From Myxococcota bacterium (GTDB lineage: Bacteria; Myxococcota_A; UBA796; CAJQPC01), in NCBI GenBank assembly GCA_036229005.1, contig JAZAMN010000022.1, forward strand, positions 6,572 to 70,571: a stretch of 64,000 nt of DNA, written 5' to 3'. Below, piece by piece: positions 14,324-64,000 of this stretch. The stretch's first letter is position 1. Each line of letters opens with the position of its first letter. The notes under the pieces were generated by a model that saw only the letters and a program-made list of their open reading frames with translations, made no database searches and was not told where the DNA came from. Made by a program: the position numbers and the translations under genes.

Positions 14324-14331
14324 CTGCCCTG

Positions 14332-14745: not shown

Positions 14746-14803
14746 TGGGATTGGGGCTCCTGAGTCTGCCCATCACAGGCAAGGTCTTCTGCGAGGAGAC
14801 CTG

Positions 14804-22864: not shown

Positions 22865-22954
22865 GTCCGGCCGGGGTCGGGGGGCACAGACAGAGGTCCA
22901 CCAAGGCGGTGGTTCCTGAGCCTGTCTGCATCCCCGCAGGCAAGTTCGTGGACG

Positions 22955-23160
22955 CACGCGCAGGCCGGTCTCCTGGCTCCTGGACCCTTGGGCTGGCCTT
23001 CCCGGAGCGCGCTCCAGTGGCAGTCAGCCAAGTCGCTCCCCGGGGGGAGCCGTCCAGTCACAGTGGCGGGGGCCGCGTCGGTTTCACACCGACTTCCCGT
23101 TTCACCCAGAGCGGACTCCGGGCACCTGCGCGTGGTTCAGACGTCAAAGAAGGTGGGCGT
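22955..23160 (-). promoter_or_regulatory. cobalamin (B12) riboswitch upstream of btuB
   Basis: The minus strand reads ...CAGGTGCCCGGAGTCCGCTCTGGGTGAAACGGGAAGTCGGTGTGAAACCGACGCGGCCCCCGCCACTGTGA...CAGGAGCCAGGAGACCGGCCTGC. This is the conserved GGGAAG..GGTG.GAA...GCGG.CCCGCCACTG core plus a B12 box (AGCCAGGAGACCGGCC). Confidence 0.88.
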
Positions 23161-32026: not shown

Positions 32027-32089
32027 GGGTGCAGGGGGAGTGGGGGGCCAAGGGGCCCAGAGAGTCGCCGCATCCTTCCCTCCGAAGGA

Positions 32090-32300
32090 CTGGGGTGATC
32101 GCAGAGGCCGGTCTCCTCGCTCCCGCTGATGAGTCTCGGGGACTCCTCGCGCCGCGCCTTCCCAGGGGAGTCCCCAGTGGCATGTGCGGTGCGATTCAGC
32201 GGTCAGAGTGGCGGGGGCCGCGCCGGTTCGCGGAGGCCCCCAGGGGGGCGCGCGTCCGGACTTCCCGTTTCATCCCCGAAGGGACACCTCTGCTGGGTCA
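32090..32300 (-). promoter_or_regulatory. cobalamin (B12) riboswitch upstream of the btuC-...-cobD operon
   Basis: The minus strand reads CAGAGGTGTCCCTTCGGGGATGAAACGGGAAGTCCGG...AACCGGCGCGGCCCCCGCCACTCTGACC...GGGAGCGAGGAGACCGGCCTCTGC, with a B12 box (AGCGAGGAGACCGGCC). Confidence 0.88.
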
Positions 32301-32349
32301 ATGAACTGGCGCCTGTCCTAGCGTGCGCTCCCCCCCCTCGCAAGCGCGC

Positions 32350-33596: not shown

Positions 33597-33614
33597 CTGA
33601 CGCGGGCGCGTCAG
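33597..33614. promoter_or_regulatory. perfect palindrome CTGACGCG-GG-CGCGTCAG
   Basis: 8-bp arms with a 2-bp centre, in the divergent intergenic region just left of the 31-bp array. Confidence 0.5.
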
Positions 33615-33626
33615 GACGGTGCGGGG

Positions 33627-33750
33627 GGCATCCAACCCTGAACGCCCGCGGGATCCGGGCATCCCACCCTGAACGCCCGCGGGATCCGGGCATCCCACCT
33701 TGAACGCCCGCGGGATCCGGGCATCCCACCTTGAACGCCCGCCACTGGGC
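33627..33750 (+). repeat. left block: 4 tandem copies of a 31-bp unit GGCATCC(C/A)ACC(C/T)TGAACGCCCGCGGGATCCG
   Basis: Copies start at 33627, 33658, 33689 and 33720, exactly 31 bp apart. The fourth diverges after 33742. Confidence 0.95.
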
Positions 33751-33757
33751 TCCAGAC

Positions 33758-33912
33758 CGGGCGTTGAACCCCAGATGCCCCCGCAGACCGGGCGTTCGAC
33801 CCCAGATGCCCCGAACACGCGGGCGTTCGACCCCGGATGCCCCGAACACGCGGGCGTTCGACCCCGTATGCCCCCGCAGTCCGGGCGTTCGACCCCCGAT
33901 GCTACCTTCCCT
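33758..33912 (-). repeat. right block: 5 tandem copies of the related unit in inverted orientation (CGGGCGTTCGACCCCAGATGCCCCGAACACG)
   Basis: Copies start at 33758, 33789, 33820, 33851 and 33882, exactly 31 bp apart. The reverse complement shares the GGGCATC and GAACGCCCG cores with the left unit. Confidence 0.95.
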
Positions 33913-33928: not shown

Positions 33929-36328
33929 ATGGCAGACGACGCACTCCCCCCCGAGCTTGGCCGCTACGCCGTCCAGGACCTGCTGGGCTCCGGCGGAATG
34001 GGGCTGGTCTACCGCGTTCAGGACCCTCGCCTGGGGCGCGATGTGGCCGCCAAGGTCCTGCGCCCCGAGCACGCCGACAGCCCCGAGCGGGCGCGCTTTG
34101 TGGCCGAGGCGCAGATCACCGCGCAGCTCCGCCACCCCTCCATCGTCTCCGTCCACGAGCTCGGCGAGCTGGCCGACGGCCGCGCCTACTTCACCATGGA
34201 GGAGATCGAGGGCCGCACCATGGAGCAGACCCTGGAGCAGCTCCACCAGGCCAGCGACGCCGGCCACTGGGGCCGAAGCGAGGACGGCTGGACCTTCTCC
34301 CGGCTGATCGAGGCCTTCCGCCGCACCTGCGAGGCCGTGGCCTATGCCCACAGCCGCCGCGTGGTGCACCGGGACCTCAAACCCAGCAACGTGATGCTGG
34401 GCCGCTTCGGCGAGGTGCTGGTCATGGACTGGGGCCTGGCCAAGGTGCTGGACGAACAGGCCCCCGAGCCCCTGCGCACCGGGCGCAGCGATGAGAGCGC
34501 CCCCAGCACCGACACCCGGGCCGGCGCCCTGATGGGCACCCCCGCGTTCATGTCCCCCGAGCAGGCCCGCGGCGACTGGGCCCGGGTGGGCACCGCCAGC
34601 GACGTGTACGCCCTGGGCGCCATCCTCTACAACATCCTGCGCGGCCAGCCCCCCTACCTGGGCGACACCGGCAGCGTGATCGCCGCCCTGCTCCAGGGCG
34701 AGCTGGAGCCCCCCGACGCCCCCAGCGAGCACAGCCGCGGGCCCGTCCCCGCCGACCTGGCCGAGATCTGCCTGCGCGCGATGGCCCCCGACCCTCAGGC
34801 TCGCCACGCCGACGCCGCCGAGCTGGCCGCCGACGTCGCCGCCTGGCTGGACGGCTCCCGCCGCCGCGACACCGCCCGCACCCTGGTCCAGGAGGCCGCC
34901 CAGCACAACGAGGAGGCCGCCGAGCTCCACCAGCAGGCCGAGCGCCTGCGCACCGAGGCCTTCCGCCGCCTGGAGCACGTCGCCGAGCACGACCCCGTCG
35001 AGCTCAAGCTGGCCGGCTGGGCCCTGGAGGACCGCGCCCGCCGCCTGGAGCTGCAGGCCAACCTGGTCGCCCTGGAGGGCACCCGTACCCTGCAGACCGC
35101 GCTCTCCCTGGCGCCCGACCTGCCCGAAGCCCACGCCGGGCTGGCCAACTACTACCGCACCCGCCACGCCCGGGCCGAGGCCGAGCGCGACCCCGACGAG
35201 GCCGCGCTGTGGGAGGTCCTGCTCCGCGACCACGACCGCGGCGAGCACCGCGACTACCTGGAGGGCACCGGCGCCCTCACCCTGGTCACCGACCCGCCCA
35301 ACGCCCAGGCCGTGCTCTACCGCTTCGTCGAGCAGGACCGCCGCCTGGTCCCCGAGCGCGTCCGCTCCCTGGGCCGCACTCCCATCCACAAGCTCCCGCT
35401 GCAGGCCGGCGACTACCTGGTGTCCCTGCGGCGCCCCGGGTACGCCGAGCTGCGCTACCCCGTGTCCATCGGCCGCCTGGAGCACTGGGACGGCGTGCCC
35501 CCCGGCGCCACCCGCCCCGCCCCCATCACCCTGCTGCGCGAGGGCGTCCTGGACGACGACGAGCGCTACATCCCCGGAGGGTGGTTCCAGGCAGGCGGCG
35601 ACCCCGGCGCCCCCCACGCCCTCAGCGGCCAGCGCATCTGGGTCGACGACCGCGTCTTCAAGCGCTTCCCCGTGCGCAACCGGGAGTACCTCGCCTTCCT
35701 CAACGATCTCGTGGATCAGGGGCAGCCCGAGCTGGCCAAGCGGTATGGACCGCGCTTTGAGGGCTTTTTGCTCCTCAACCGCTCCCTGGACGGCCACTAC
35801 ACGCTGCGCACCGACATGACGCTCTTCTCCCAGCACCCCGACGCGCCCGTGGTCATGATCGACTGGCACGGGGCCAAGGCCTACGCCGACTGGGAGGCCG
35901 AGCGCACCGGCCTGCCCTGGGATCTGCCCGAGGAGATCGCCTGGGAGAAGGCCGCCCGCGGCGTCGACGGCCGCATCTACCCCTGGGGGAACTACCTGGA
36001 CCCCACCTGGTGCAACGTCCGCGACAGCCAGGTGGGCGCGCCGGGCCTGGCCCAGGTCTCCGAGCACCCCGTCGACGAGAGCGTCTACGGCCTGCGCGGC
36101 ATGGGCGGCAACACGATGGACTGGTGCCGGGACAGCTTCCGCGCCTCGGGCCCCCCCATCGCGGACGGGCGTTACACCCTGCTGGACAACCAGACCGGCC
36201 CCCGGGCCATCCGCGGCGGCCACTGGTACTCCGTGGACCAGCTCTCCCGCTGCGCCCACCGCTTCCGCCTGGAGCCCCAGATGCGCGCCTACATGATCGG
36301 ATTCCGCCTGGCGCGCACCCTGAACTGA
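33929..36328 (+). CDS. Ser/Thr protein kinase with a coiled-coil middle and a C-terminal FGE-sulfatase (SUMF1-like) domain
   Basis: Kinase motifs GSGGMGLVYR, VAAKVL, HRDLKPSNVM, DWGLA and GTPAFMSPEQ. C-terminal domain motifs RFPVRNREYLAFL, DWHGAKAYADW, LPEEIAWEKAARG, RGGHWY and GFRLAR. ATG 33929 is in frame with track ORF 33731..36328. Confidence 0.9.
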   Translation: MADDALPPELGRYAVQDLLGSGGMGLVYRVQDPRLGRDVAAKVLRPEHADSPERARFVAEAQITAQLRHPSIVSVHELGELADGRAYFTMEEIEGRTMEQTLEQLHQASDAGHWGRSEDGWTFSRLIEAFRRTCEAVAYAHSRRVVHRDLKPSNVMLGRFGEVLVMDWGLAKVLDEQAPEPLRTGRSDESAPSTDTRAGALMGTPAFMSPEQARGDWARVGTASDVYALGAILYNILRGQPPYLGDTGSVIAALLQGELEPPDAPSEHSRGPVPADLAEICLRAMAPDPQARHADAAELAADVAAWLDGSRRRDTARTLVQEAAQHNEEAAELHQQAERLRTEAFRRLEHVAEHDPVELKLAGWALEDRARRLELQANLVALEGTRTLQTALSLAPDLPEAHAGLANYYRTRHARAEAERDPDEAALWEVLLRDHDRGEHRDYLEGTGALTLVTDPPNAQAVLYRFVEQDRRLVPERVRSLGRTPIHKLPLQAGDYLVSLRRPGYAELRYPVSIGRLEHWDGVPPGATRPAPITLLREGVLDDDERYIPGGWFQAGGDPGAPHALSGQRIWVDDRVFKRFPVRNREYLAFLNDLVDQGQPELAKRYGPRFEGFLLLNRSLDGHYTLRTDMTLFSQHPDAPVVMIDWHGAKAYADWEAERTGLPWDLPEEIAWEKAARGVDGRIYPWGNYLDPTWCNVRDSQVGAPGLAQVSEHPVDESVYGLRGMGGNTMDWCRDSFRASGPPIADGRYTLLDNQTGPRAIRGGHWYSVDQLSRCAHRFRLEPQMRAYMIGFRLARTLN

Positions 36329-39342: not shown

Positions 39343-39385
39343 TCGCTCCCCCCGCCTGAGGGCCTCCCCGGGGGCCCGCACCCAG

Positions 39386-39410
39386 CAGGGACCTTCGGGT
39401 CCCTGTTGTC
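39386..39410 (+). terminator. stem-loop terminator candidate
   Basis: CAGGGACC-TTCG-GGTCCCTG followed by TTGTC, 44 nt after the lipoprotein stop. Confidence 0.45.
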
Positions 39411-39458
39411 GCTCTGGGGACGCGCCAGTTTGACCTCGCTGGCGGGCGCGGCTCTGCT

Positions 39459-42400
39459 ATGGTCCGCGCGAAAGGGAGCGTTGTGGTGGGAATCTCAGGT
39501 CTGCTGCCTGTCGTCTTGGGCTGCAGCCCCTCCCCAGAGACCCAAAGGGACTCCCGCGCGACCGTCCGGCAGAAGGATCTGGCGGACACCCAGGTCACCC
39601 TGCAGCCCACCGCGAGCGCCGCAAGCGACCGCTTCGGACGGGCCCTGGCCAGCGGGGACTTCAACGACGACAGCTACCCGGATCTGGTGGTCTCGGCGCC
39701 GGGACTGGGCAGCGGCGGGCTGCTCTACCTCTACGAGGGCACGGTCTCGGGCCTGGACCTGGTCACCGAGCACACCTTCTCCACCACGGGCTCGATCGGC
39801 CTGGGCTACGGCCTCTCCGCTGGCGGCGACGTGAACGGTGACGGCGTCGAGGATCTGGCGGCCACCGAGACAGGCGACAGCACACAGGAGCAGGTCTACC
39901 TCTTCCTGGGCTCCACCACCGCGGGGCTGGTCGCGGATCAGGCGATCCAACCTTCGGACTGGGTGTACGGGGACAGCTTCAAGGTGCCCGCCCTGGGCGC
40001 GGACCTGGACGGAGACGGCTACGGAGACCTGGCGGTGGGCGCCCTCACGGCGGACGCGACCTACACCGACCAGGGCGCGGTCTACGTGTACTACGGCAGC
40101 GCGACAGGGGTCGTCGCCGCCAGCGAGCTCAAGCTGACCGACCAGGCCAATCCCTGGACCAGCGCCTACTACGGGACCGCCGTGGCGATGGGCCCCGACT
40201 CGGACGGGGACGGCTACGACGAGCTCTACGTGGGCCGACCCTGGCTCGGCACCTCGGCGGTCTACATCTACAACGGCAGCACCACCGGGGTCAGCGCCAG
40301 CAGCTACGCGTCCCTGACCGGCAACGGGACCGCCGTCTCCCACGGCGGCTCCATCTCCTTCGCGGACATCGACGGGGACGGGCTCACCGACCTGCTGGTC
40401 GGGGATCAGAACGCCGGGAGCTACGGGTCCGTGGGCGGCGGCGGGCAGATCTACACCTACTTTGGCAGCGCCACGGGGTACTCGGACACCAACCACCAGA
40501 CCGCGGGCTCCTGCTACTACCGCTGCGACTACGCCGAGCACATCGCGGGGCTGGGAGACGTCGACGGGGACGGCTACGGCGACGCCCTCGCGTCCTACCT
40601 GTCCACCTCGATCGGCTCGTCGGGCTCCACGGCACCCAGCTTCTACCTGCACTACGGGACCGCCACCGGCCTGGCGCAGTCGGGCACCCTGCTGGACACC
40701 TCGGGCGGCAGCTTCGGCAACGCCTGGGCCAGCGAGGACTTTGACGGGGACGGCCTGATGGACCCGGCCCTGGGCTGGTTCGGGCAGGCCTCGTGGAGCG
40801 CCACGGATCCGGGCTGGGTGAACCTCTACACCGGCAGCAACCGCACCTGGTACCCGGACCTGGACGGCGACGGCTACGGCGACGAGAGCGCGGGCGTGGA
40901 GAGCGCGACGCCGCCCTCCGGCTACATCGAGGACGGCACGGACTGCGATGACAGCGACGCCACGACCTACCCCGGCGCCACCGAGGTCGTCGCCGACGGG
41001 GTGGACAACAACTGCGACGGCTACGAGAAGTGCAAGGAGGACCGCGACCAGGACGGCTACGCCGAGTACCGGGGGGAGGTCACCTCCTCCGACCTGGACT
41101 GCACGGACCCCGGAGAGGGCGACAGCAGCATGCCCCGCACCGACTGCGACGACGGGGACGCCAGCATCAACCCGGGGGCGACCGATCATCCCGCGGACGG
41201 CATCGATCAGGACTGCGATGGCCAGGAGCTCTGCTACGAGGACCTGGACGGCGACGGCTTCGGGACCGACGCCGGTACCACCCTGAGCTCCGCCGATCTG
41301 GACTGCGAAGACAGCGGCGAGTCCGGCACCGACGACGACTGCGACGACAGCGACGCCAGCATCCACCCGGACGCGACCGAGGGCTTCGCCGACGGCGTGG
41401 ACCAGGACTGCGACGGGATCGAGTTCTGCTACACCGACGCCGACGGGGACGGCCACAGCGCCCTGCTGGAGAGCAGCGACGACGACTGCGACGACGCGGG
41501 GGAGTCCTACACGGCCAGCGGCAGCTTGGACTGCGACGACAGCGACGCCAGCGTGTACCCGGGCGCGGCCGAGACCGTTGGCGACGGGATCGACCAGGAC
41601 TGCGACGACGCGGACGCCTGCTATGTCGACCTGGACGGCGACGGCTACGGGGACGGGCTGGTGGACAGCAACTCCGCGGCCTGCTCGGACAGCGGCGAGG
41701 CGCTGGTGGACGGCGACTGTGATGACGCCGACGCCAGCGTGAACCCCGGCGCGACCGAGGCCGCCGCGGACGGGGTCGACCAGGACTGCGATGGCTTCGA
41801 GCTGTGCTACCTGGACAGCGACGGGGACGGCTACGCAGCGGGGGACACCGTGGCGGACAGCGATCTGGCCTGCGGGAGCGCCGGCAGCGCCACCGTCGCG
41901 GACCAGGACTGCGACGACAGCGACGCCGCCGTGAACCCGGCCGCCGCGGAGATCGCCGGCGATGGGGTCGACCAGGACTGCGACGGCACCGAGGACTGCT
42001 ACGACGACGCCGACGGGGACGGGGTCGCCGGCAGCACCCTGATCCAGGCCGAGGATCTGAGCTGCGGGGCCTACAGCACCACCGCCGGGGCCGACTGCGA
42101 CGACAGCGACAGCGACGCCTTCCCCGGGGCCACCGAGGCGGTCGCCGACGGCGTGGACCAGGACTGCGACGGCGGCGACACCTGCTACGCGGACGGCGAC
42201 GGCGACGGCTTCGTGGACGGCACGGTGACCAGCGCGGATCTGGACTGCACCGACAGCGGAGAGGCCGCCAGCAGCTCCACCACCGACTGCGACGACGCCG
42301 ACGCCTCGGTGTACCCCGGCGCCCCCGAGGCGGTGGGAGACGGCGTGGACTCCGACTGCGACAGCGCCGAGCTCTGCTACGTGGACGCGGACGGCGACGG

Positions 42401-43529
42401 CTACCGCGTGAGCGACACGGTCTCGGACGCCGCGCTGGACTGCAGCAGCGCCGGGAGCGCGGACGCCGCGGCCCCTGACGGGGACTGCGATGACCTCGCC
42501 GCCGCCATCCACCCTGGCGCTACGGAGGTCCTCGCCGATGGGACGGACTCCGACTGCGATGGGCTGGAGCTCTGCTGGGTGGACGATGATGGGGACGGAT
42601 TCCAGGCGGGCGATCAGACCCTCTCGGCCTCCCTGGACTGCAGCGACGCAGGGATCGCCGGGAGCGCCGCGGGCGCCGGAGACTGCGACGACACGGACCC
42701 CGCCATCCACCCGGGCGCCACCGAGGGCATCGGGGACGGCGTGGACTCGGACTGCGACGGCGGCGAGCTCTGCTACGTGGACGCCGACAGCGACGGCTAC
42801 CACGACGGGATCACCGCGGCGGGCCCCTTGGGCTGCGGCGATGCGGGCCTGCTCAGCGGCAGCGCGCCAGGGGACGACTGCGACGACAGCGACCCCGCCT
42901 TCCACCCCGGCGCCGACGAGTCGGACTGCACCGATCCCAACGACTACAACTGCGATGGCTCGGTCCAGTACGCCGACGACGACAGCGACGGCTGGCCCGC
43001 CTGCACCGAGTGCGACGACCAGGATCCCGACGTCCACCCCGACGCCGACGAGCTCTGCGACGGGATCGACAACGACTGCGATGGCACCGTCGACAACGAC
43101 GACGCCCTGGACGCCGGGGTCTGGTACGAGGACGGGGACGGGGATGGCTTCGGGCTGGACGGGTACACCACCCAGGCCTGCTTGGTGCCCTCCGGCTACT
43201 CCGAGCTGCCTGGCGACTGCGAGGACACCGACTCCACGATCCACCCTGACGCCCTCGAGATCTGCGGCGACGGCGTGGACAACGACTGCGACGGTGCGGG
43301 GGGCCCCGACGACGACGAGGACGGCGACACCCTGAGCTGGACCCAGGAGCAGGACCTGGGCACCGACCCCTGCGACCCCGACACGGACGACGACGGACGC
43401 AGCGACGCCGACGACAGGCGGCCGGTGGGCTGTGAAGGCTGCGCCAGCTCGGGATCCGGCGCGCCAGGGGGCTGGATGGCCGGCGTGGTGCTGCTCGGCG
43501 TGCTGCTCAGACGCCGCCGCCGGGCCTGA
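39459..43529 (+). CDS. giant surface protein: lipoprotein signal, FG-GAP/VCBS-type repeats, ~18-20 Cys-rich MopE-type putative metal-binding repeats, TSP3-like Asp motifs and a MYXO-CTERM-like tail
   Basis: Signal GLLPVVLGCSP. FG-GAP-like repeats (GDFNDDSYPDLVVSAPG, GDVNGDGVEDLA, DLDGDGYGDLAVGA...). Repeated DCDD.D..[IV][HNY]PGA.E...DG[VI]D.DCDG.E.CY.D.DGDG units span aa ~470-1290. The C-terminus is GCEGCASSGSGAPGGWMAGVVLLGVLLRRRRRA. Confidence 0.9.
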   Translation: MVRAKGSVVVGISGLLPVVLGCSPSPETQRDSRATVRQKDLADTQVTLQPTASAASDRFGRALASGDFNDDSYPDLVVSAPGLGSGGLLYLYEGTVSGLDLVTEHTFSTTGSIGLGYGLSAGGDVNGDGVEDLAATETGDSTQEQVYLFLGSTTAGLVADQAIQPSDWVYGDSFKVPALGADLDGDGYGDLAVGALTADATYTDQGAVYVYYGSATGVVAASELKLTDQANPWTSAYYGTAVAMGPDSDGDGYDELYVGRPWLGTSAVYIYNGSTTGVSASSYASLTGNGTAVSHGGSISFADIDGDGLTDLLVGDQNAGSYGSVGGGGQIYTYFGSATGYSDTNHQTAGSCYYRCDYAEHIAGLGDVDGDGYGDALASYLSTSIGSSGSTAPSFYLHYGTATGLAQSGTLLDTSGGSFGNAWASEDFDGDGLMDPALGWFGQASWSATDPGWVNLYTGSNRTWYPDLDGDGYGDESAGVESATPPSGYIEDGTDCDDSDATTYPGATEVVADGVDNNCDGYEKCKEDRDQDGYAEYRGEVTSSDLDCTDPGEGDSSMPRTDCDDGDASINPGATDHPADGIDQDCDGQELCYEDLDGDGFGTDAGTTLSSADLDCEDSGESGTDDDCDDSDASIHPDATEGFADGVDQDCDGIEFCYTDADGDGHSALLESSDDDCDDAGESYTASGSLDCDDSDASVYPGAAETVGDGIDQDCDDADACYVDLDGDGYGDGLVDSNSAACSDSGEALVDGDCDDADASVNPGATEAAADGVDQDCDGFELCYLDSDGDGYAAGDTVADSDLACGSAGSATVADQDCDDSDAAVNPAAAEIAGDGVDQDCDGTEDCYDDADGDGVAGSTLIQAEDLSCGAYSTTAGADCDDSDSDAFPGATEAVADGVDQDCDGGDTCYADGDGDGFVDGTVTSADLDCTDSGEAASSSTTDCDDADASVYPGAPEAVGDGVDSDCDSAELCYVDADGDGYRVSDTVSDAALDCSSAGSADAAAPDGDCDDLAAAIHPGATEVLADGTDSDCDGLELCWVDDDGDGFQAGDQTLSASLDCSDAGIAGSAAGAGDCDDTDPAIHPGATEGIGDGVDSDCDGGELCYVDADSDGYHDGITAAGPLGCGDAGLLSGSAPGDDCDDSDPAFHPGADESDCTDPNDYNCDGSVQYADDDSDGWPACTECDDQDPDVHPDADELCDGIDNDCDGTVDNDDALDAGVWYEDGDGDGFGLDGYTTQACLVPSGYSELPGDCEDTDSTIHPDALEICGDGVDNDCDGAGGPDDDEDGDTLSWTQEQDLGTDPCDPDTDDDGRSDADDRRPVGCEGCASSGSGAPGGWMAGVVLLGVLLRRRRRA
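40850..43330 (+). repeat. intragenic array of ~140-150-bp coding repeats (MopE-type Cys repeats)
   Basis: gactgcgacgac...gaccaggactgcgacgg recurs at DNA level throughout this span. Confidence 0.85.
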
Positions 43530-51474: not shown

Positions 51475-51559
51475 GGAGGTGTGGCCGAGCGGTTGAAGGC
51501 ACCGGTCTTGAAAACCGGCAACCCTTCGGGGTTCGTGGGTTCGAATCCCACCGCCTCCG
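51475..51559 (+). tRNA. tRNA-Ser (anticodon UGA)
   Basis: GGAGGTG acceptor pairs with CGCCTCC. Anticodon arm CCGGT-CTTGAAA-ACCGG. Long variable arm. T-arm GTGGG-TTCGAAT-CCCAC. 85 nt, with no encoded CCA. Confidence 0.9.
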
Positions 51560-51615
51560 CTTCCCCCGTCTCGGGGACCAAGATCTTTTAAAGCGCTGAC
51601 TGCAGATGCCTGTTT

Positions 51616-51708
51616 GGAGGCGTGACCGAGTGGCTGAAGGTGCTTGATTGCTAATCAAGTGTACGGTCAAAAGCTGTACCGAGGGTTCGAATCCCTCCGC
51701 CTCCGCCA
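51616..51708 (+). tRNA. tRNA-Ser (anticodon GCU), CCA encoded
   Basis: GGAGGCG acceptor. Anticodon arm CTTGA-TTGCTAA-TCAAG. Long variable arm. T-arm GAGGG-TTCGAAT-CCCTC, then CGCCTCC-G-CCA. Confidence 0.9.
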
Positions 51709-51757
51709 CCTTGGCTCCAACCGGTTATACCGGCTTCCGCATCGCAGAAGGCCATAC

Positions 51758-51831
51758 GCACCCATAGCTCAATTGGATAGAGCGTCGGACTACGGATCCG
51801 AAGGTTAGGGGTTCGACTCCTCTTGGGTGTA
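51758..51831 (+). tRNA. tRNA-Arg (anticodon ACG)
   Basis: GCACCCA acceptor. D-arm GCTC-AATTGGATA-GAGC. Anticodon arm TCGGA-CTACGGA-TCCGA. T-arm AGGGG-TTCGACT-CCTCT. The 3' acceptor strand TGGGTGT gives a G1-U72 wobble. Confidence 0.85.
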
Positions 51832-52647: not shown

Positions 52648-53511
52648 ATGCCAACCCACCCGATGCGATTCACGTCTCGAGCATAGCGGGTTCCCGAAGA
52701 CAGCGCTCCTGCCCTGCTGTTGACCAGCCAAGGCCCGCACTTCTGATGTTCTCCCCGCTTTGGCTGCAAGGGGCGGGGAACCGGCGGCCAACGCTCGGCC
52801 CTGAAGGGCCGGCCCTCCACCGGGTCCAACTCACCGCCTTCAACCGACACCCGGGCGCCGCAGTCATCCTGCCCTTGCCCCGGCCCGCCGGCCACCACTC
52901 GCTCGCACAACAAGCCCTCCCCTTCGTCCGGCACCCCGGCTCGGTTCGTGCTCCCGCCCTCCGGCTTCCGGCCCTCACCTGGTCGGCAGGGGGCCGGGCG
53001 CCTCCGCTGCGCTTCGGCACGTCGCATACCGCAAAACGCTGGTCGAAAACGCCCCGCCCACGAGCACCGGCCACCTCCACGCGGAGAGATTCTCGACCCA
53101 CCACGCGGTGCAAAGCACTCCCCTCGCTTTTCCACCCAAGTCACACCGCCTCGTGCTCCGGTCACCTTTCGGCGTGGAATGGGTGGGCGCAACTCGGGCA
53201 CCCACTCACTGTGCGGCGCTGAACCCGCCAGTTTGGCGGGCGCAGCGCCTCGCCGGAGCGGGCCATTCGCAGAACGGGCGGTAAACGCCATTGGACCGCG
53301 ACGACCGGTTCTCGGGCCTCCAGCCCCGGAAGCTCTGGAAGCGGCCCAACGGCGTCTACCGCTGGACGGTCCCCGCGTTGCGTCTATGCTCAGCCAAACG
53401 CCGCAAGCGCCCGCGCCATCGGCCTCCTTGGGGCGAAACTGCGGTGTCTTTTCTGCGCAGTGTTTCTTTGGCGCGCTGCCTCTTCCCCGGAGTGTCCCCT
53501 CCGCGCGCCTC

Positions 53512-57352: not shown

Positions 57353-57359
57353 GGGGGGC

Positions 57360-57629
57360 TCAGAGCGATTCCAGCGCGAGAGAGAGCTTGTCGGCGAGGC
57401 TCCAGCGCAGGCCGGCGGAGTAGAGGCTCCCTGCGAGGCTGGGGCGGCGGAAGACGGTGATGACGGCGCGGCCATCGTGGACCACCACGACGCCACGCAG
57501 GTGGACACGGACCTGACCGGGCTTGGCCCGCAGGGGTTCGCCGGAGGCCACGCAGGCGCGGACCTCGGCCAGGGAGATGTTGCGCTCGTGCATTCGCTGG
57601 CGGGCGTGGAGGGAGAGAGACAGGGACAT
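57360..57629 (-). CDS. DUF4258-like small protein (putative toxin-fold)
   Basis: LSLHARQRMHERNISLAEV pattern. 89 aa. Confidence 0.55.
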   Translation of the reverse strand: MSLSLSLHARQRMHERNISLAEVRACVASGEPLRAKPGQVRVHLRGVVVVHDGRAVITVFRRPSLAGSLYSAGLRWSLADKLSLALESL

Positions 57630-57684
57630 CGGCGGGCTCCGGGGACAGGGGGAGAACGCGGGGACCGAAGCCCCCGCAGCGAGC

Positions 57685-57885
57685 TCAGCGCTTGCCGCCG
57701 CCGCCCTTGGTGCTGCCCTTTCCGGACTTGGCGCCCCCCTTTCCAGGCTTGGCGCCTCCCTTTCCGCTGTTGCTGGCCGCGGCCTTCGACGCGCGCGCCT
57801 TGAACCCGGAGTTCTTGCCGCTCTTGTCGGCGTGGCTCTGGATCCGGCTCGCGGCGGGCTGGGTCATCGGGGTCTTCTTGCTCAT
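57685..57885 (-). CDS. small basic Gly/Lys-rich protein (SMP/KGG-like)
   Basis: MSKKTPMTQPAASRIQSHADKSGKNSG..., then GKGGAKPGKGGAKSGKGSTKGGGGKR. 66 aa. Confidence 0.5.
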   Translation of the reverse strand: MSKKTPMTQPAASRIQSHADKSGKNSGFKARASKAAASNSGKGGAKPGKGGAKSGKGSTKGGGGKR

Positions 57886-58056
57886 GTGGACTCTCCAGTT
57901 GGGGTTCTGTCAGCGAGCTGACACCCTTGGAATCACACGGGCCAAAGCTGGGTTTTCATTGTTTCCCAGAACAGCGGAGGGTCCCCCTCGAACGCCGACT
58001 CCAGACAAGACAGCCACCCCGGAGGCTGGCTGCGCTCGCCTGGACGGGGGGCCGGG

Positions 58057-58656
58057 TCAGGTGTCTCTGGGGTCCAGCCGAAGGGCCCCCAGCACCTCTG
58101 CGCTCCCCTGCCCTCCCAAGGCTTCCTGCAGGAGCGCAATGGCCGGAGCGGCAGACTGGTCCGGGGTCCTCAGTGCCCACAGCGTGCTGCGCTCCCCTGG
58201 CTGAGGGAGCTCGCGCTCAAAGGACTGCCCGGCATTCAAGCGTTGATGGCCCAAGCGCTGCACGCGGCCGCCATCATCGGTCACGATCAGGTGGTAGTGC
58301 CCGGGCTGAGGAGCTGTCACCACGGCCATTGGGCCAGGGTCTGACTCCAGGAGTTGGAGCAGCTCCACGGGCGCCGCCTCGTCGCTCGCCAGGGCGAAGG
58401 TCCCGGCGGGGGCGTCCAGGAGCACAGCGCGCCCCTGCTCCAGCAGGGTCTGCCAACCCGCGACGAAGCTCGCCCAAGGCGCTCCCCGGGCTGCGAGCCC
58501 AGCGTCACGGCGTGCGTCTCGCTCCGCTTGCAGGATCCCATCCAGGAGCAGGGGAAGCTGGGGGTCCCGGCAGCGGATCATCCACTCGGTGACGCGGCGG
58601 CGCTCAGGGGCCGGGAGCTCTCCCCGGACCCACTGAACGAGGGTCTGTTCGGTCAT
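58057..58656 (-). CDS. hypothetical protein, N-terminus reminiscent of anti-sigma factors
   Basis: MTEQTLVQWVRGELPAPERRRVTEWMIRC resembles the LxxYLDGELxxxERxxVExHL pattern but lacks the Zn ligands. The ATG overlaps the upstream stop by 4 nt. Confidence 0.55.
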   Translation of the reverse strand: MTEQTLVQWVRGELPAPERRRVTEWMIRCRDPQLPLLLDGILQAERDARRDAGLAARGAPWASFVAGWQTLLEQGRAVLLDAPAGTFALASDEAAPVELLQLLESDPGPMAVVTAPQPGHYHLIVTDDGGRVQRLGHQRLNAGQSFERELPQPGERSTLWALRTPDQSAAPAIALLQEALGGQGSAEVLGALRLDPRDT

Positions 58657-59246
58657 TTGGTCATCCCATAGCTCTGGCTGCGCTCGAGCTTGAGCACGTC
58701 GCAGGCGGTTGTAGTGACTGCAGGCTTGAGCAGCCGGAAGACCAGCTCCCCGAGCACCTGCTGCTGATCCAAGGCGTCCATCTCCTCACAGAGGGTGAGG
58801 ACGGCCTCTTCGGCGCCGGAGCGGGCCAGGGCCTTGAGCAGACGGGGCCCCCCGAAGCCTTTGACACCTGGGGCCTTGGCCGCGGCCTTGCTCCACGCGT
58901 AGGGCGGGACGTTGTCCGGGAAGGGTGTGAAGTACACCACCTTGAGCGCCTCCCGCTGCCTGCTGTCGCTGAGCTTGGGCAGCACCTGCTTCCAGATCAC
59001 AGCGTGCCGGAAGACCGCCAGGCTGCGGTACTTGCTCCGAGAGGGGCGACCCAGGGCCAGGTAGCGACGCGAAGGCTCGAAGGGCATGGCCATCTCCGTC
59101 CGCGCCAGCTCGGCCCTCGCCCGCTGGGTGGCTGCCAGCCAGAGCGGACTCATCTCCATGCAGCTCTGGTCCACGACCTGCTCCAAGGCCGCCGCCAGCT
59201 CACTGACGAGCTGCTGGTCCTCTTCTTCGCTGAGTCTGAACGGCAT
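58653..59246 (-). CDS. hypothetical protein (197 aa)
   Basis: Protein-like composition. LPKLSDSRQREALKVVYF faintly resembles sigma-70 region 4. Coupled to the downstream gene. Confidence 0.55.
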   Translation of the reverse strand: MPFRLSEEEDQQLVSELAAALEQVVDQSCMEMSPLWLAATQRARAELARTEMAMPFEPSRRYLALGRPSRSKYRSLAVFRHAVIWKQVLPKLSDSRQREALKVVYFTPFPDNVPPYAWSKAAAKAPGVKGFGGPRLLKALARSGAEEAVLTLCEEMDALDQQQVLGELVFRLLKPAVTTTACDVLKLERSQSYGMTK

Positions 59247-59303
59247 GTCGCCCCTTTAGGCCGAGTCCTGGCCCGGCTGATCCGTGTTTCCCAGAACGCG
59301 CCC

Positions 59304-61007
59304 TCAGGTGGCCACACACTGCCCCGTCAGCGCCAGCCAGACGTAGGCCTGGTAGGCCCGGACCTCCCCGCCCTCACTGCTCACCTGCAGCGCATTGCGG
59401 AGCTCCTTGGGGTTGGCCTTGGGGCACAGGTACAGCAGGCTCGCCGCGATCCCGGAGACATAGGGGGCGGCCAGCGAGGTCCCCGACAGGCTGCCGTAGC
59501 CGCCCCCCACCTGGGTGGTGCAGATGGCCTCTCCGGGCGCCTTGAGGTCCGGCCCAGCGCCGTTGAACCCGCTGCTGTTCCCGAGCCGGTTCGTCGAAGC
59601 GACGCTCAACACTGTCCCGTGGCGGGCCGGCCAGTGCCGCGCGCCCGACTTGTTGCCAGCGGCCGCCACCACCAGCACCCCCTCCTGCTCGGCGTACTCC
59701 AGCGCCTCGACCACCACCTGGGGCGTGGTGCCCACCCCAGCCAAGGACAGGTTGATGACCTGGGCTCCCTCGTCGACAGCGTCGGTGATGGCATCGGCGA
59801 CCTCCCAGCTCGGCGTCCGACGCTCGCTCAGCGCAAAGTCCAGCAGCTCGATGCGCTGCCCGCTGTGGTTTGGGCTGCTCACGCCGATGTAGTTGTGGCT
59901 CTTTGCGGCCAGCACGCCGGCGACGCCTGTTCCGTGAACCGACCCCCGCCCGTACCCGCCTCGCACCACCCCCTTCAGGTCGGGGTGGGAGGCGTCGATG
60001 CCCAGATCCACGACGGCCACCAAGGTCTCCGGCCTGCGCACCAGGGGCCGGAGCTTCGCCAGCTCCAGCAGCTCGGTGCGCTCCAGGCCGTATTGATGCT
60101 GCGAATAGGGGTCGTTTGTGAGCCTGCGACCGGGCACCGGGCTCGCGCACCGGCTCGCAGCCTCGGCCTCGGGGACCTGGGCCATCGACACAGGCTCCAC
60201 CCAGTCGACGTTCTCCCAGTCGTCCTCAAGCAGCTCCTGCGCCCTGGCCCGGTCGGCGTAGGACACGGAGAGCACAAACTGGCGGTTGAGGCCGGTCCGG
60301 TCGTGCGGGACGTAGTCGTCGTGGACCCGCTCGGGTTTCAGCGCCAGCAGCCGGTCGTCCAGCTCTGTGAGGGAGTCGTCTGGGCCCAGCTCGAAGACCA
60401 GCTCCGCGCTGCCTGGGTCGAGGGGGGTGACGGGCTCCTCCCAGTCCAACCAGAACATCAGCGCGAAAGGAGACGCGGAGAGCGCGACCCAACCGGGGAT
60501 GGGTGTGGGGAAGTCTGGTCGGGCGACCGCGGCCAGGTGTCGAGTGGCGCGGGAGAAGCGGCGGAGCGTCCAGGAGCCGAGCAGCAGCCGGAGAAAGAGG
60601 GCGGTGTAGAAGGCCAGGAGCAGGATGGCCAATCCCATCGCGAGGGTGAACACCAGCACAGCCTCTTCCGGAGACGCCTGCTCGAGGCCATCGAAGAGAA
60701 ACGCCTCCGGGTCTCGAATCAAACCGGCACAGGTCACGATCAACGCCGCGCCCGCCATGAGGAAGAAGAACCCCAGCCCCCGAGTGAAGCGCTCCGGGCG
60801 CATGGGGACCGGCTCCGCGGCACGCTTGAGCACCCCCGTCAAGGTCTCGATGGCCCGGTTCAAGCGGAGCCACTCAAAGACCATGAGCACGATGAAGCTC
60901 AGCATGCCCGAGAAGATGACGGTCCCTTCCAGGTCTGTCCCATCCTGGACGAGCCAGAGGAACCACCCCACAAACAACGCGCCAAGCTGCAGGGCGCGCA
61001 CAATCAT
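59304..61007 (-). CDS. membrane-anchored subtilisin-like (S8) serine protease
   Basis: N-terminal ~4-5 TM helices (ALQLGALFVGWFLWLV, MLSFIVLMVFEWL, GLGFFFLMAGAALIVTCAG, VLVFTLAMGLAILLLAFYTALFL). Catalytic triad motifs VAVVDLGID, HGTGVAGVLAA and GTSLAAPYVSG. ATG 61007. Confidence 0.85.
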   Translation of the reverse strand: MIVRALQLGALFVGWFLWLVQDGTDLEGTVIFSGMLSFIVLMVFEWLRLNRAIETLTGVLKRAAEPVPMRPERFTRGLGFFFLMAGAALIVTCAGLIRDPEAFLFDGLEQASPEEAVLVFTLAMGLAILLLAFYTALFLRLLLGSWTLRRFSRATRHLAAVARPDFPTPIPGWVALSASPFALMFWLDWEEPVTPLDPGSAELVFELGPDDSLTELDDRLLALKPERVHDDYVPHDRTGLNRQFVLSVSYADRARAQELLEDDWENVDWVEPVSMAQVPEAEAASRCASPVPGRRLTNDPYSQHQYGLERTELLELAKLRPLVRRPETLVAVVDLGIDASHPDLKGVVRGGYGRGSVHGTGVAGVLAAKSHNYIGVSSPNHSGQRIELLDFALSERRTPSWEVADAITDAVDEGAQVINLSLAGVGTTPQVVVEALEYAEQEGVLVVAAAGNKSGARHWPARHGTVLSVASTNRLGNSSGFNGAGPDLKAPGEAICTTQVGGGYGSLSGTSLAAPYVSGIAASLLYLCPKANPKELRNALQVSSEGGEVRAYQAYVWLALTGQCVAT

Positions 61008-61099
61008 GCTTCGAAGCACACTCTTCCCGAGTCGAGCGCGAATCCTACGGGCAGGCGCGTCCCTGCGTCGATTACAGCGCCCTACAGCCGCGGGCGGCC

Positions 61100-61606
61100 C
61101 TACTCCAGCACCAAACACGCCCCCTGCAGCGCCGCCAGCTCGTCCATCCACACCTGACGCGTCTGGGCGTTGGGGTCGGCCTCGTAGGCAGCCTGGGCTT
61201 CGGCGGCGACCTGGGCGGCGATCTGGATGGCCTCCCGCGCGGGATCGGGCAGAGGCTCGGGCTCACTGCCCTGGGCGACGGGCTCGACGCCGGAGGGCTC
61301 CTGGATGTCCTCGCACACGCGCTGGGGCGTGGGGTTGCGCTGGTCTCCAGGCTCCAGGATGCGTTGCTGTTGCTCATGCCCGGCGGCGGTGGCGTAGGCC
61401 ATCTGGACGCCCACTCCGGGCAGGGCGCAGTCCTGCTCAGGGCTCCAGGCGTACTGGGGCTCGCGCTCGGCGCAGACGCGGTGCACCTCGGCGGCGTAGG
61501 CCCGCACGCGGGCATCCTCCTGGGTCTCCACCGAAGCCTCCGAGAGGGGCTCTGGATCAGGAGTCGGGGTCGAAGCGCAGGCGAGCAGGAGCATCCACAT
61601 GCACAC
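61100..61606 (-). CDS. lipoprotein of unknown function
   Basis: MCMWMLLLACASTPTPDPEP lipobox. 168 aa. Confidence 0.6.
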   Translation of the reverse strand: MCMWMLLLACASTPTPDPEPLSEASVETQEDARVRAYAAEVHRVCAEREPQYAWSPEQDCALPGVGVQMAYATAAGHEQQQRILEPGDQRNPTPQRVCEDIQEPSGVEPVAQGSEPEPLPDPAREAIQIAAQVAAEAQAAYEADPNAQTRQVWMDELAALQGACLVLE

Positions 61607-61622
61607 AGGATAAACGCGCGGG

Positions 61623-62630
61623 GTGAGACTCCCCTACCAAGATCCCGTGGACCTGATCTGGCTCGGCACACTGCGTGAGCTGGGCTGGCGCGTGGAGCGC
61701 AGCGACGAGGTCTTTGCGAGCTGGGACGGGCAGGGGCTGCTGCGGATCTCCTCGCCGGCGGGCTTCGATCCCGACGACTGCCTGGCGCAGATGTGTTTCC
61801 ACGAGGTGTGCCACGCGCTGGTGCAGGGCCCAGAGAACCTCTCCCGACCCGACTTCGGGATGGAGAACATCGACGATCGGGATCTGGTGGCCGAGTGGGG
61901 CTGCCACCGCCTCCAGGCGGCGCTGCTGGATCCCCACGGGCTGCGCTGGGTGCTCGCTCCCACCACGGACCACCGGCCCTACTACGAGGCCCTGCCGGCG
62001 CGCCCCCTGGCCCCCTGCGACGACCCCGCGCTGCCTCTGGCCCTGGCTGGCTACAAGCGCGCCATGGAGGGCCCCTGGGCCGAGGCGATCCAGGCCGCCC
62101 TGCAGGCCACCGCCGAGATCGGCCGCCAGGCCCGCCGCTACGCCCCCGAGAGCCTCTGGGCGCAGACCCTGGAGCGCCACCCCACCGGCTTGCCGCCCGC
62201 CCCTGAGCCCCGCCCCTGCACCGGCTGCGCGTGGTCCCGCGATGGGCAGTGCCTGGTGGCCGAGACCGCGCACCCCGAGCGGGGCTGCGGCTACTGGGAG
62301 CCTCGCCTGGGCATGGAGGACTGCGCGGACTGCGGGGCCTGCTGTCGGCAGGGCTTCGACGTGGTGGACCTGGAGCCGGACAGCCCCCTGCTGGAGAGCC
62401 ACACAAGTTGGGTGGAGGACCGCGGCTTCGGCCCACAGCTCCCCCGCCCCGGTGGCTTCTGCGTGGGCCTGGAGGACACCCAGGCGCCCTTTCGCTGCAG
62501 CGTGTATTCGCGGCGTCCCAAGGCCTGCCGGGATCTGGCGCCGGGATCGGAGGGGTGCCTGGCGGCCCGGGAGCGCTGCGGCGTGGCGCGGACGGAGCTG
62601 CCGCGGCCGAGGGTGCGGGAGCTGGGCTGA
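61623..62630 (+). CDS. fusion of an HExxH-motif domain and a YkgJ-type (CxxCxxCC) cysteine-cluster domain
   Basis: QMCFHEVCHAL (HExxH). C-terminal CADCGACCRQGF....GGFCVGL....RCSVYSRRPKACRDL matches the UPF0153/YkgJ pattern. The GTG start lies only 16 bp from the divergent lipoprotein start. Confidence 0.7.
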   Translation: MRLPYQDPVDLIWLGTLRELGWRVERSDEVFASWDGQGLLRISSPAGFDPDDCLAQMCFHEVCHALVQGPENLSRPDFGMENIDDRDLVAEWGCHRLQAALLDPHGLRWVLAPTTDHRPYYEALPARPLAPCDDPALPLALAGYKRAMEGPWAEAIQAALQATAEIGRQARRYAPESLWAQTLERHPTGLPPAPEPRPCTGCAWSRDGQCLVAETAHPERGCGYWEPRLGMEDCADCGACCRQGFDVVDLEPDSPLLESHTSWVEDRGFGPQLPRPGGFCVGLEDTQAPFRCSVYSRRPKACRDLAPGSEGCLAARERCGVARTELPRPRVRELG

Positions 62631-62754
62631 CCGCTGGGCGTCAACACTGCCCCGAGACAGCGTTCGCTTGAGCTGGGGAGCCCGTGCCCGCCCAGCGAGG
62701 CCCCGCGGCCGTGACAGTCCTGGTGCAGCCGACCTGCGAGACCGCCCAGGAAGG

Positions 62755-62847
62755 CCTCGCCAAGGCGGCTACGGGGTCTGAGTGAGCGCCCAACCGAGGC
62801 CACGGCCCCCCAATGAGCGGCGTTCTGAGGCTACGCCTGCTCGGTGA
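62755..62847 (-). repeat. left block of a second 31-bp repeat array: 3 copies in inverted orientation
   Basis: Units at 62755, 62786 and 62817, each ending (A/G/C)(A/G)TGA. For example, GCGCCCAACCGAGGCCACGGCCCCCCAATGA matches the reverse complement of the right-block unit at 23/31 positions. Confidence 0.8.
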
Positions 62848-62942
62848 GCGATTCGGCCACCGATCTGGCCCTGCGGGGCCCCAAATGCCCCCCATACGGG
62901 CCCGGATCGGGCTGAATCGGGCTGGATCGGTGGACAAATCGA

Positions 62943-63062
62943 TCACTGGTGGGCCGTAGCCTCCAGCGAGCGCTCACTGGTATGCCGTAGCCTCCGGCGG
63001 GCGCTCATTGGCGTGGCGTAGCCTCCGGCGCGCGCTCATTGGCAGGGCGTAGCCGCCACGCC
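62943..63062 (+). repeat. right block of the second 31-bp repeat array: 3.9 direct copies of TCA(C/T)TGG..G.CGTAGCCTCC.GCG.GCGC
   Basis: Units start at 62943, 62974, 63005 and 63036, exactly 31 bp apart. The block ends ~10 bp from the stop of the minus-strand gene at 63073. Confidence 0.92.
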
Positions 63063-63072
63063 ACCCACAACC

Positions 63073-64000
63073 CTACTCCACCCAAATCACCGAGCCGACC
63101 GCCCACCCCAGCGTGTCCTCGACGGTGGCCTGAAGCCAGGAGGGGTCCCCGGGCAGCAGGATGTCGCGCGGTGTGCACGGCCCCTCCCAGGCCAGCTCGC
63201 CGTCTGCCCAGACCTGGACCCCATCGGCCGCCCCCTGACACTCCAGGCGCACGGAGCGGCCCTCCAGGCTCAACCCGCCCGGCTCCACCCAGACAAGCGG
63301 CCCGCTCGACGCCACGCTCTGCCCGATGAACAGCGCCTTCTCGAAGGCCACCGCGCCCGGGAGCTCGAAATCCACGACCCGCAGCCAGGTGTAGGGGCCT
63401 ACGGCGGACACGCGCTCGTCCTGGGCGGCCAAGGCCCGAAGCCAGGCGGCGTCCTCGACCCCGTTGACCCGCAGCGCGGTGGGCATGGGCTCCCAGCCAG
63501 ACACGGGGCCCGCGCCCTCCATCCACGCCACATCGACGACCGCCAGGCGCTGCGCCTTGAGGGGCTCCATCGCGACGTGCAGGAGCAGCTCGGGGGTCTC
63601 GATGCCGGCCCACTCCACCGCGCCGTGGCCCGGGTTCTTGCTGCGGCTCCAGCCCCAGCTCCAGACTTGGCCCAGGGGGCTCTCCAGGCGGCTGCCGGCC
63701 CGGACGCGCAACACCTCGGCGACCCAGTCGGTGGTGTAGGGGCGCGCGATCTCGTCGCGGGGGGTGTGCACCACGAACTGCACGCCCAGACCGGCGGCGA
63801 GGCTGAGATCGTCCATGGGCTCCGTGCGGGACAGGGCGCTGGGCCAGGCCTCGCGGTCGAGCTGTGCCAGGCGCCAGTCCCCAGGCGCGATGCGGCGCTC
63901 CAGCACGATGGGCTCGTCGGGGGCGTCCTGTCCGGCGTAGACCGACAGCTCCAGAGGCGCGAACATGGGCCCCGCGTCCACGGTGACGGCGTGCTCCCCG
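63073..64000 (-). CDS. hypothetical protein, N-terminus beyond the window edge
   Basis: Protein-like 302-aa ORF. The frame stays open upstream of the GTG at 63981 to the window end (..GEHAVTVDAGPMF..), so it is probably 5'-truncated here. Confidence 0.6.
   Translation of the reverse strand, partial: GEHAVTVDAGPMFAPLELSVYAGQDAPDEPIVLERRIAPGDWRLAQLDREAWPSALSRTEPMDDLSLAAGLGVQFVVHTPRDEIARPYTTDWVAEVLRVRAGSRLESPLGQVWSWGWSRSKNPGHGAVEWAGIETPELLLHVAMEPLKAQRLAVVDVAWMEGAGPVSGWEPMPTALRVNGVEDAAWLRALAAQDERVSAVGPYTWLRVVDFELPGAVAFEKALFIGQSVASSGPLVWVEPGGLSLEGRSVRLECQGAADGVQVWADGELAWEGPCTPRDILLPGDPSWLQATVEDTLGWAVGSVIWVE

Follow-up and report, generated by a model that had tools for sequence, protein, structure and literature searches.

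The 31-bp tandem arrays near the right end of a 64,000-nucleotide stretch of Myxococcota DNA (assembly GCA_036229005.1, contig JAZAMN010000022.1; the whole stretch is called the window here) form one copy of a lineage-specific family of non-coding "foldback" elements. This copy, at 62.8 kb, is a composite of two inverted arms—each a head-to-tail array of 31-bp units—around a largely non-repetitive centre. About 86 kb of the lineage could be read, consisting of the window, 16.1 kb to its right and 5.8 kb to its left, and this sequence holds five composite elements, all intergenic and belonging to two sequence families, A and B. The sequence past the window end comes from strain L001 (ENA ERZ23498654 scaffold_66), which is 98% identical and was found via a flanking protein; L017 is a further stretch of the L001 contig. 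The organism itself is an uncultured high-G+C myxobacterium known from metagenome assemblies only.

Anatomy, dispersal and strain variation of the elements

The 62.8-kb element is a member of family B and covers window positions 62764-63057, from GGCGGCTAC at 62764 to GTAGCCGCC ending at 63057, with a 92-bp centre between its arms. The left arm (62764-62850, - strand) is made of reverse-complement units and aligns with the left arms of the two other B elements. It begins with its terminus, GGCGGCTAC (62764-62772 in reverse-complement reading), continues with two complete 31-bp units (GGCCAC/GGCTAC boxes at 62798-62803 and 62829-62834) and closes with an inner part-unit that ends GGTGAGCG at 62843-62850. 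The centre (62851-62942, no strand) is bounded by the inverted pair CCACCGATC (62857-62865) and GATCGGTGG (62925-62933) and carries a short repeat of its own, GGATCGGGCT, at 62904-62930. The right arm (62943-63057, + strand) starts with an inner part-unit, followed by three full units beginning with GTAGCC at 62956, 62987 and 63018 and by the terminus GTAGCCGCC at 63049-63057. Read from the centre outward, both arms therefore have the same grammar: GATCGGTGG, six variable bases, CG(C/A)TCAC, units of the form N8-GTAGCC-N9-CGCTCAYT and the terminal GTAGCCGCC. Judged from its sequence, the stretch at 63058-63082 (+ strand) is possibly a degenerate outermost part of the right arm; it reaches the stop codon of the - strand gene on that side (CTA, 63073-63075).

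The repeats had been recognized in an initial annotation of the window, and most of that description stands. The units of the right block read as given there, and Tandem Repeats Finder (TRF) places 3.7 copies of period 31 at 62943-63058 (84% matches, score 127), the first three units being 25-27/31 identical to each other. The left block does contain three reverse-complement copies, starting at 62755, 62786 and 62817, with identities to the right-block units of 17-23/31 instead of the 19-23 first given; unrelated 31-mers at the composition of the window (70.9% G+C) are expected to share about 9-10/31. The 31-mer at 62848, where a fourth left-block copy would fall, is not one (7-11/31). Between the blocks, the annotated spacer of about 95 bp was found to measure 95 bp, and its 10-bp repeat was recovered by TRF with 2.7 copies. 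The two-unit pattern GTAGCC-N9-CGCTCAYT-N8-GTAGCC, with up to two mismatches allowed, has five matches in the window—three on the + strand in the right block and two on the - strand in the left block—and all five fall at this locus, against 0 expected from 100 shuffles.

A second element with the same period and the same inverted layout, built from a different unit, had been proposed at 33.6 kb, and TRF indeed reports two inverted arrays of period 31 there (33626-33742, 3.8 copies; 33753-33902, 4.8 copies). This family-A element has four units GGCATC-N7-GAACGCCCG-N9 in its left arm (33626-33741, + strand), a 16-bp centre, CCACTGGGCTCCAGAC (33742-33757, no strand), and five reverse-complement units in its right arm (33758-33903, - strand). 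Common ancestry of the A and B units was considered and rejected, as the similarity of their consensus sequences is not significant in any rotation or orientation (p = 0.25). An identical period and layout in two unrelated sequences would be the expected outcome of a period dictated by helical phasing or by a protein footprint.

Three more elements lie outside the window: A2 of family A (L001 16809-17050) and B2 and B3 of family B (L001 18630-18895 and L017 2060-2325). All five are about 240-310 bp in size with 3-6 units of exactly 31 bp per arm, head-to-tail, and they sit between convergent, divergent and co-directional genes of unrelated function. The unit GTAGCC-N9-CGCTCAYT-N8 recurs at three loci and the family-A unit at two. 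Across the three B elements, both arms and the edges of the non-repetitive centre can be aligned, while the middle of the centre is variable. The element ends are GGCGGCTAC...GTAGCCGCC in family B and GGCATC...GATGCC in family A. Hence, these are small non-coding elements with terminal inverted repeats in several dispersed copies, as is characteristic of miniature inverted-repeat transposable elements (MITEs). Profiles of whole elements, run with nhmmer against 23 sequences, returned these five loci and no degenerate or solo copy beyond them (E <= 1e-66 for the B elements; the full-length match at 62.8 kb covers 62764-63029 with E = 6.9e-76). Solo units are likewise absent from the 64-kb window, and a scan of the whole window for periods of 10-79 found period 31 at 33.6 kb and 62.8 kb only, all other periodic stretches lying inside predicted coding open reading frames (ORFs). 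The chance expectation is 0 matches with the B pattern of two units and 0.4 with the A pattern of one unit. The short-read contigs L002 and L014 end inside elements, as expected of a multi-copy repeat in assembly.

Outside this lineage, the exact two-unit B pattern has two isolated single matches in 185,579 species genomes (Bryobacteraceae and Waterburya) and four in the Joint Genome Institute (JGI) metagenomes, all without an array and at chance level. The two-unit patterns, of A as well as of B, have 0 matches in viral contigs, neither element matched a plasmid in blastn searches, and no description of such 31-bp arrays in Myxococcota was found in the literature.

Conservation within the unit is sharply divided between boxes and linkers. 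When units of separate arms and loci are compared, family B shows 97% identity at 14 of the 31 positions and 43% at the remaining 17; in family A, the corresponding figures are 96% for 13 positions and 43% for the other 18. A linker identity of 43% is close to the expectation from base composition. The conserved positions make up two boxes per unit with centres about 15-16 bp apart, GTAGCC and CGCTCAYT in B and GGCATC and GAACGCCCG in A, and their spacing (N9/N8 in B, N7/N9 in A) is free of insertions or deletions in every unit. Identity amounts to 23-25/31 for units within an arm, 19-20/31 between the arms of one element and about 21/31 between loci. The excess within arms over that between arms indicates that arms are homogenized locally.

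The arrays also differ among strains by whole units, as dispersed minisatellites or loci whose number of tandem repeats varies (VNTRs) do. In L001, the right arm at 62.8 kb has two extra copies of an interior unit (5.6 versus 3.7 copies), and the intergenic length is 504 bp versus 442 bp in the window. In the third strain, L013 (ENA ERZ23498711, 98-99% identical), the left arm at 33.6 kb comprises five units, one more than in the window, and carries several substitutions.

More distant relatives have no such arrays. Near-identical strains keep them at the orthologous intergenic regions, whereas neither a 31-bp array nor a box pair occurs in the non-redundant sequence of relatives at 57-79% protein identity (L003, L010, L012, L015, L016 and L018), about 83 kb in total; at the density of the window lineage, about 4.8 elements would be expected in these 83 kb, and the probability of finding none is about 0.008. 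Direct comparison is possible at three sites. In L018, the convergent genes that flank the 62.8-kb element (there encoding a 623-aa protein and YkgJ) are 37 bp apart versus 442-504 bp in the window lineage, and the NifU to radical-SAM distance is 177 bp versus 346 bp with B2. Upstream of the kinase gene that follows the 33.6-kb element, L015 and L016 have 160-161 bp versus 448-479 bp in the window lineage; here, the match of the flanks ends with GCGGG at one border and resumes with TA(G/C) at the other, which places the array within GCGGG|TAGAC. These comparisons argue for a gain in the window lineage and not a loss elsewhere, as far as three sites can tell. Several loci per family, combined with absence in distant relatives, point to gain by spread within the lineage instead of isolated slippage. 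The initial annotation had taken the shared geometry of two loci as an argument for a generating mechanism or a function over chance, and three more loci outside the window, two families and unit variation among strains reinforce it. A lack of further arrays and of any repeat in close relatives had been named there as the mark of a random local product; further 31-bp arrays exist, and the close strains keep them.

Origin of the arrays and rival explanations

With moderate confidence, we read these loci as mobile, non-autonomous foldback elements, whose units would be phased bipartite protein-recognition sites and whose arms would change by slippage. On this reading, each 31-bp unit would be the bipartite recognition site of a sequence-specific DNA-binding protein—the distance of about 15-16 bp between box centres would suit a two-domain or dimeric binder—and the 31-bp period, corresponding to three helical turns, would put successive sites on one face of the DNA. 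Such phasing would explain the same period in two unrelated sequences. The whole element, centre included, would be copied in trans to new intergenic sites by a hypothetical mobilizing protein, most probably a transposase or recombinase encoded elsewhere, with a mode of action likened to multi-site transposon ends and eukaryotic foldback elements. After insertion, replication slippage or unequal recombination might let the arms grow or shrink and homogenize the units within an arm. A precedent for this mechanism is found in Galileo, a foldback-like transposon, where tandem repeats in the inverted ends carry extra transposase-binding sites (PMC4079207).

Several observations weigh against mobility of this kind. 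No transposase, recombinase or HUH/RAYT gene (RAYT: repetitive extragenic palindrome-associated tyrosine transposase) is present in the window and about 22 kb beyond, as judged by Pfam and gene tables. A target-site duplication is absent at the sole mappable junction, that of the kinase upstream region against the divergent L015 and L016, where the flanks are GCGGGG and TACC. Nearly all linker positions differ among copies at different loci, and a recent transposition burst is not seen across the loci; this divergence might reflect either old insertions, fast local turnover or regrowth from few founder units. Arms from the same element resemble each other no more than arms from different elements do, and hence show no sign of selection for arm-to-arm pairing. 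Furthermore, the element sample is about 86 kb of one lineage with four of the five loci within about 16 kb, and the call of gain versus loss is based on three sites and on outgroups at 65-79% protein identity.

The same boxes could also be host binding sites that do not move at all. An oligomeric regulator or nucleoid protein would then occupy the array at one unit per three helical turns and, by wrapping or bridging the DNA, control neighbouring genes or local chromosome structure. Lrp, for instance, binds sites about three helical turns apart. Such host sites would account for boxes and exact spacing that are strictly conserved against near-random linkers, for a 31-bp period of about three helical turns and for its recurrence in two unrelated families; moreover, the 33.6-kb element ends 25 nt before a start codon, at the site of a motif, GGTAGACT, that is conserved in relatives. 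However, the elements are placed between convergent, divergent and co-directional genes of unrelated function, the same genes do without arrays in relatives, the unit number varies freely among strains and no regulator gene is linked to the elements. The B centre was copied along with the arms, which suggests spread of the whole element, and we regard a purely host function as rather unlikely. We give still less credence to a system of repetitive extragenic palindromic (REP) sequences and their paired, hairpin-forming arrangement (REPIN), an improbable alternative in which each unit would represent an extragenic palindrome with a GTAG head, the arms would pair into a single-stranded DNA hairpin like that of a REPIN and a single-copy RAYT of the Y1/HUH type would cut and copy it. 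Family-B units mostly start with GTAG (11 of 13, plus one GTGG and one CTAG), which resembles the GT(A/G)G head of REPs (PMC2817692, PMC3733652), the palindrome CCAGCGAGCGCTCACTGG directly follows this head in some units, the elements are extragenic with inverted arms, and a target duplication is missing, as with HUH enzymes. In addition, whole elements fold well (z -5 to -8 in four of the five; the 62.8-kb element as DNA has z = -6.1 versus dinucleotide shuffles), so that the two inverted copies are able to form one hairpin as in a REPIN. This folding is not found at the level of the unit: single family-B arms fold no better than dinucleotide shuffles (z -1.4 to +0.6), and the CGCTCA flanks within one unit are no more complementary than flanks taken from different units (p = 0.73), which means no covariation and rules out a REP hairpin of the family-B unit. 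Palindromes at each unit junction had been annotated initially; they occur at two of three junctions (GAGCGCTC and GCGCGCGC), while the third reads GGGCGCTC, so that they are not a general feature. Family A has neither a GTAG nor a CGTC head, units within an arm are head-to-tail, an order reported to be rare for REPs (PMC3733652), solo units are missing and about 86 kb of the lineage contain no RAYT.

Whole-element folding extends to RNA, where both strands reach z -4.96 to -7.9 in four of the five elements (A2: -2.2 and -3.5). A read-through transcript might thus form a long, imperfect hairpin and so terminate transcription, shield 3' ends or become a substrate of a double-strand RNase; the position of the 62.8-kb locus between convergent gene ends would fit, and stabilization of upstream mRNA by REPs offers a precedent (PMC3733652). 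Against this role, scans of both window loci for sigma-70 promoters and intrinsic terminators found no site and no G+C-rich stem-loop with a T-run, and Rfam gave no match at gathering score at either locus in a whole-window scan and none at E <= 1 for 62600-63120. The identity of the two arms within an element does not exceed that between elements—pairing is not specifically maintained—and the conserved positions are sequence boxes, not pairing partners. The 4-5 bp GCCCG/CGGGC stem of family A is made of invariant boxes and hence uninformative on covariation. Taken together, the folding and covariation tests indicate that the conserved features are sequence boxes at fixed spacing and not stems. 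A 3'-end role is impossible for one element, which is situated in a promoter region between divergent genes. The initial annotation had expected same-sense copies in each of the convergent 3' untranslated regions: this follows from the mirror symmetry of the arms, but a general role there does not, since other loci are in divergent and co-directional regions. Overall, a function at the RNA level appears improbable. As for independent local slippage at each locus, with a likeness that arose by chance and no shared origin, the gains and losses of whole units among strains do show slippage or unequal exchange at work. Yet three B loci agree in 14 box positions and in the edges of the non-repetitive centre, and the A boxes recur at two loci, against chance expectations of 0 for the two-unit B and 0.4 for the one-unit A pattern; this recurrence of boxes and centre excludes such an origin for practical purposes.

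Returning to mobile foldback elements with phased recognition sites, a more far-reaching version can be put forward tentatively, although we think it unlikely in its entirety. The elements might be a bacterial counterpart of eukaryotic foldback transposons, with ends made of bipartite 31-bp binding sites in arrays that can expand; two or more unrelated families would be served by paralogous putative proteins of the same footprint, and array length might tune mobility or the expression of neighbours.

A number of other candidates were rejected. The loci are not CRISPR arrays, as the units abut without spacers and no Cas family is among the Pfam matches. Nor are they bacterial interspersed mosaic elements (BIMEs), as the units of each arm are head-to-tail and orientation switches once only, at the centre. 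A TA target duplication of the IS630/Tc1 type is dismissed for the kinase site, where the left flank has no TA, and GTAG as a general insertion target has no support because it is present at some junctions only. The Pfam scan covered about 40 window ORFs and 10 unclassified neighbours of elements and found neither Cas nor a partition protein; rep, par or partition genes, which would mark iterons or a centromere, stand beside none of the five loci.

Neighbouring genes and other features of the window

The genes around the 62.8-kb element converge, as initially annotated (+ strand 61623-62630 and - strand 63073 to beyond 64000). On the left side, a YkgJ-type CxxCxxCC cysteine-cluster protein of 335 aa (61623-62630, + strand) has its stop 133 bp before the left arm; an exact look-up of this protein gave no record. 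The gene on the right side (63073-64000, - strand) has no Pfam match and is cut by the window end; in strain L001 its product has 637 aa. The best named homologues of the flanking proteins are from Myxococcota (Nannocystaceae, Paraliomyxa, Sorangium, Polyangiaceae, Kofleriaceae and Sandaracinaceae), and the homologues include metagenome-assembled genome records labelled Alphaproteobacteria. In two relatives at 65-67%, a methyltransferase gene lies between YkgJ and the convergent gene (L003 11010-11696 and L012 5867-6553). This gene is missing from the window lineage and from L018; hence, the YkgJ junction was remodelled more than once.

At the right edge of the element, a 12-mer, CCCTACTCCACC, is found at 63071-63082; it recurs directly beside the right arm of B2 (L001 18902-18913). 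Next to both right arms, the - strand genes end GTGGAGTAG followed by GG (..VE*), inside the shared 12-mer, and their orthologues in an element-free relative end CTCTAA (..WL*) and GTTGATTGA (..VD*). At B3, the shared gene-end sequence GTGGAGTAG does not appear. At these two loci, the final codons of the neighbouring gene, stop included, may have been replaced by the B element.

The right arm of the family-A element in the window ends 25 nt upstream of the start codon of a Ser/Thr kinase-FGE gene (33929-36328). A conserved motif, GGTAGACTG, precedes the kinase gene in relatives and also the radical-SAM gene, 5-21 nt upstream of the start codon (L015 6105-6113, L016 944-952, L018 6635-6643 and L017 about 9990). 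It resembles a -10 box, as would serve mRNAs with a short leader or none. The array of the family-A element at 33.6 kb occupies precisely the place of this motif, where the window has TACCTT. With one copy on the kinase upstream region and two copies that apparently supply the last codons and stop of their neighbours, the elements may alter gene expression. Just outside the left arm of the same element, a perfect 7-bp stem, CTGACGC-GGGC-GCGTCAG, occupies window 33597-33614. Sequence related to this stem (GACGCG..GCGTCA) is retained in the element-free L015 and L016, so that the stem is part of the host intergenic region and not of the element.

Elsewhere in the window, some stretches differ between strains or are repetitive in other ways. 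A 3.7-kb stretch with an S8 subtilase gene and small uncharacterized ORFs (57357-61100) is absent from the 98% identical L001, where its flanks abut. A 110-bp indel versus L001 and L002 at 53010-53120 is non-coding, lies downstream of a tRNA cluster and has no repeat at its edges; three tRNA genes follow directly after seryl-tRNA synthetase at 51475-51831. Between predicted genes, a 460-bp tandem duplication spans 14328-15211 (1.9 copies, 83% matches, TRF score 1282), whose consensus looks like the start of a lipoprotein-type gene. At 20662-20741, the hexamer TCGGCG is repeated 13 times, and a similar 6-bp periodicity exists at the matching place of a 79% relative (L015 2106-2287), by which the repeat is probably a coding dipeptide repeat. 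The gene at 39360-43529 encodes a 1389-aa FG-GAP/MopE-motif protein with 12 Cu-binding_MopE repeats and contains a 198-bp coding tandem repeat (42285-42804) and many short repeats of the GACGGC type. Two cobalamin riboswitches, at 22946-23144 and 32089-32306 (both - strand; 106 and 80 bits), precede a TonB-dependent receptor gene and a row of FecCD/ABC transporter and cobalamin-salvage genes (CobS, CobT-like, CobU and CobO).

Comparison with known systems

The elements belong to a known kind—dispersed intergenic repeats—and to no named family of it. REPs, BIMEs, MITEs, BOX elements and mycobacterial interspersed repetitive units (MIRUs) are used in strain typing and shape transcription, mRNA decay and genome rearrangement. 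The elements described here break short-read assemblies of their lineage, and as VNTR markers they could help to follow strains in metagenomes. No open question of long standing hinges on the foldback-element finding.

Like REP/REPIN-RAYT systems and BIMEs, the arrays are short, G+C-rich, lineage-specific extragenic repeats, and family B has the GTAG head. REP-type elements include inverted units around a spacer that can be conserved, and clusters or tandem reiteration in some genomes (PMC3733652, PMC3116915, PMC2817692). In contrast to them, the units here are not conserved palindromes and follow each other strictly head-to-tail at a fixed 31 bp, without the alternation seen in BIMEs; family A has no GTAG, solo units do not occur and no RAYT is encoded in the about 86 kb.

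Pneumococcal BOX elements have the modular order boxA-(boxB)n-boxC. The BrickBuilt MITE of Porphyromonas gingivalis is composed of 23-nt tandem units between a leader and a tail with short inverted ends (PMC4596501). Both resemble the present elements in being dispersed, intergenic, species-restricted and non-coding, with an internal tandem module that varies in copy number by locus and strain. They have one array in a single orientation between unique ends, whereas here the arrays are the inverted arms, the centre is unique and two families share one period. Mycobacterial MIRU minisatellites, too, are single-orientation arrays, with units of 46-101 bp and without an inverted second arm or a centre. 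Common ground exists in tandem units of tens of base pairs at many intergenic loci, in whole-unit strain variation and in copies that touch flanking stop or start codons; the inverted second arm, the centre and the 31-bp unit set the present elements apart.

Phased arrays of binding sites are known from Lrp at pap and ilvIH, with about three helical turns between sites, and from plasmid centromeres such as parC, with two direct-repeat blocks, and sopC, with 12 x 43 bp. There, as proposed here, sites are in helical phase, sometimes in two blocks, with one protein subunit per unit. Unlike the present elements, these arrays belong to one operon or replicon, lie beside the gene of the binding protein and are not copied to many unrelated intergenic sites.

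An architectural parallel is offered by the foldback transposons Drosophila FB, Galileo and Tetris, which have long inverted ends of tandem sub-repeats around a middle domain and a variable repeat number. The ends of Drosophila FB include 31-bp repeats. These transposons differ in being eukaryotic and kilobase-sized, in making target-site duplications and in that some copies encode a transposase. The likeness is one of architecture and presumed working, not of descent. The same period and geometry in two unrelated sequences of one genome point to a physical ruler that could be identified, be it helical phasing or the footprint of a protein. What is new in these elements, and unmatched among the kinds compared, is the combination of inverted arms that are head-to-tail arrays of 31-bp bipartite units, a conserved centre, the lack of solo units and one period shared by two unrelated families.

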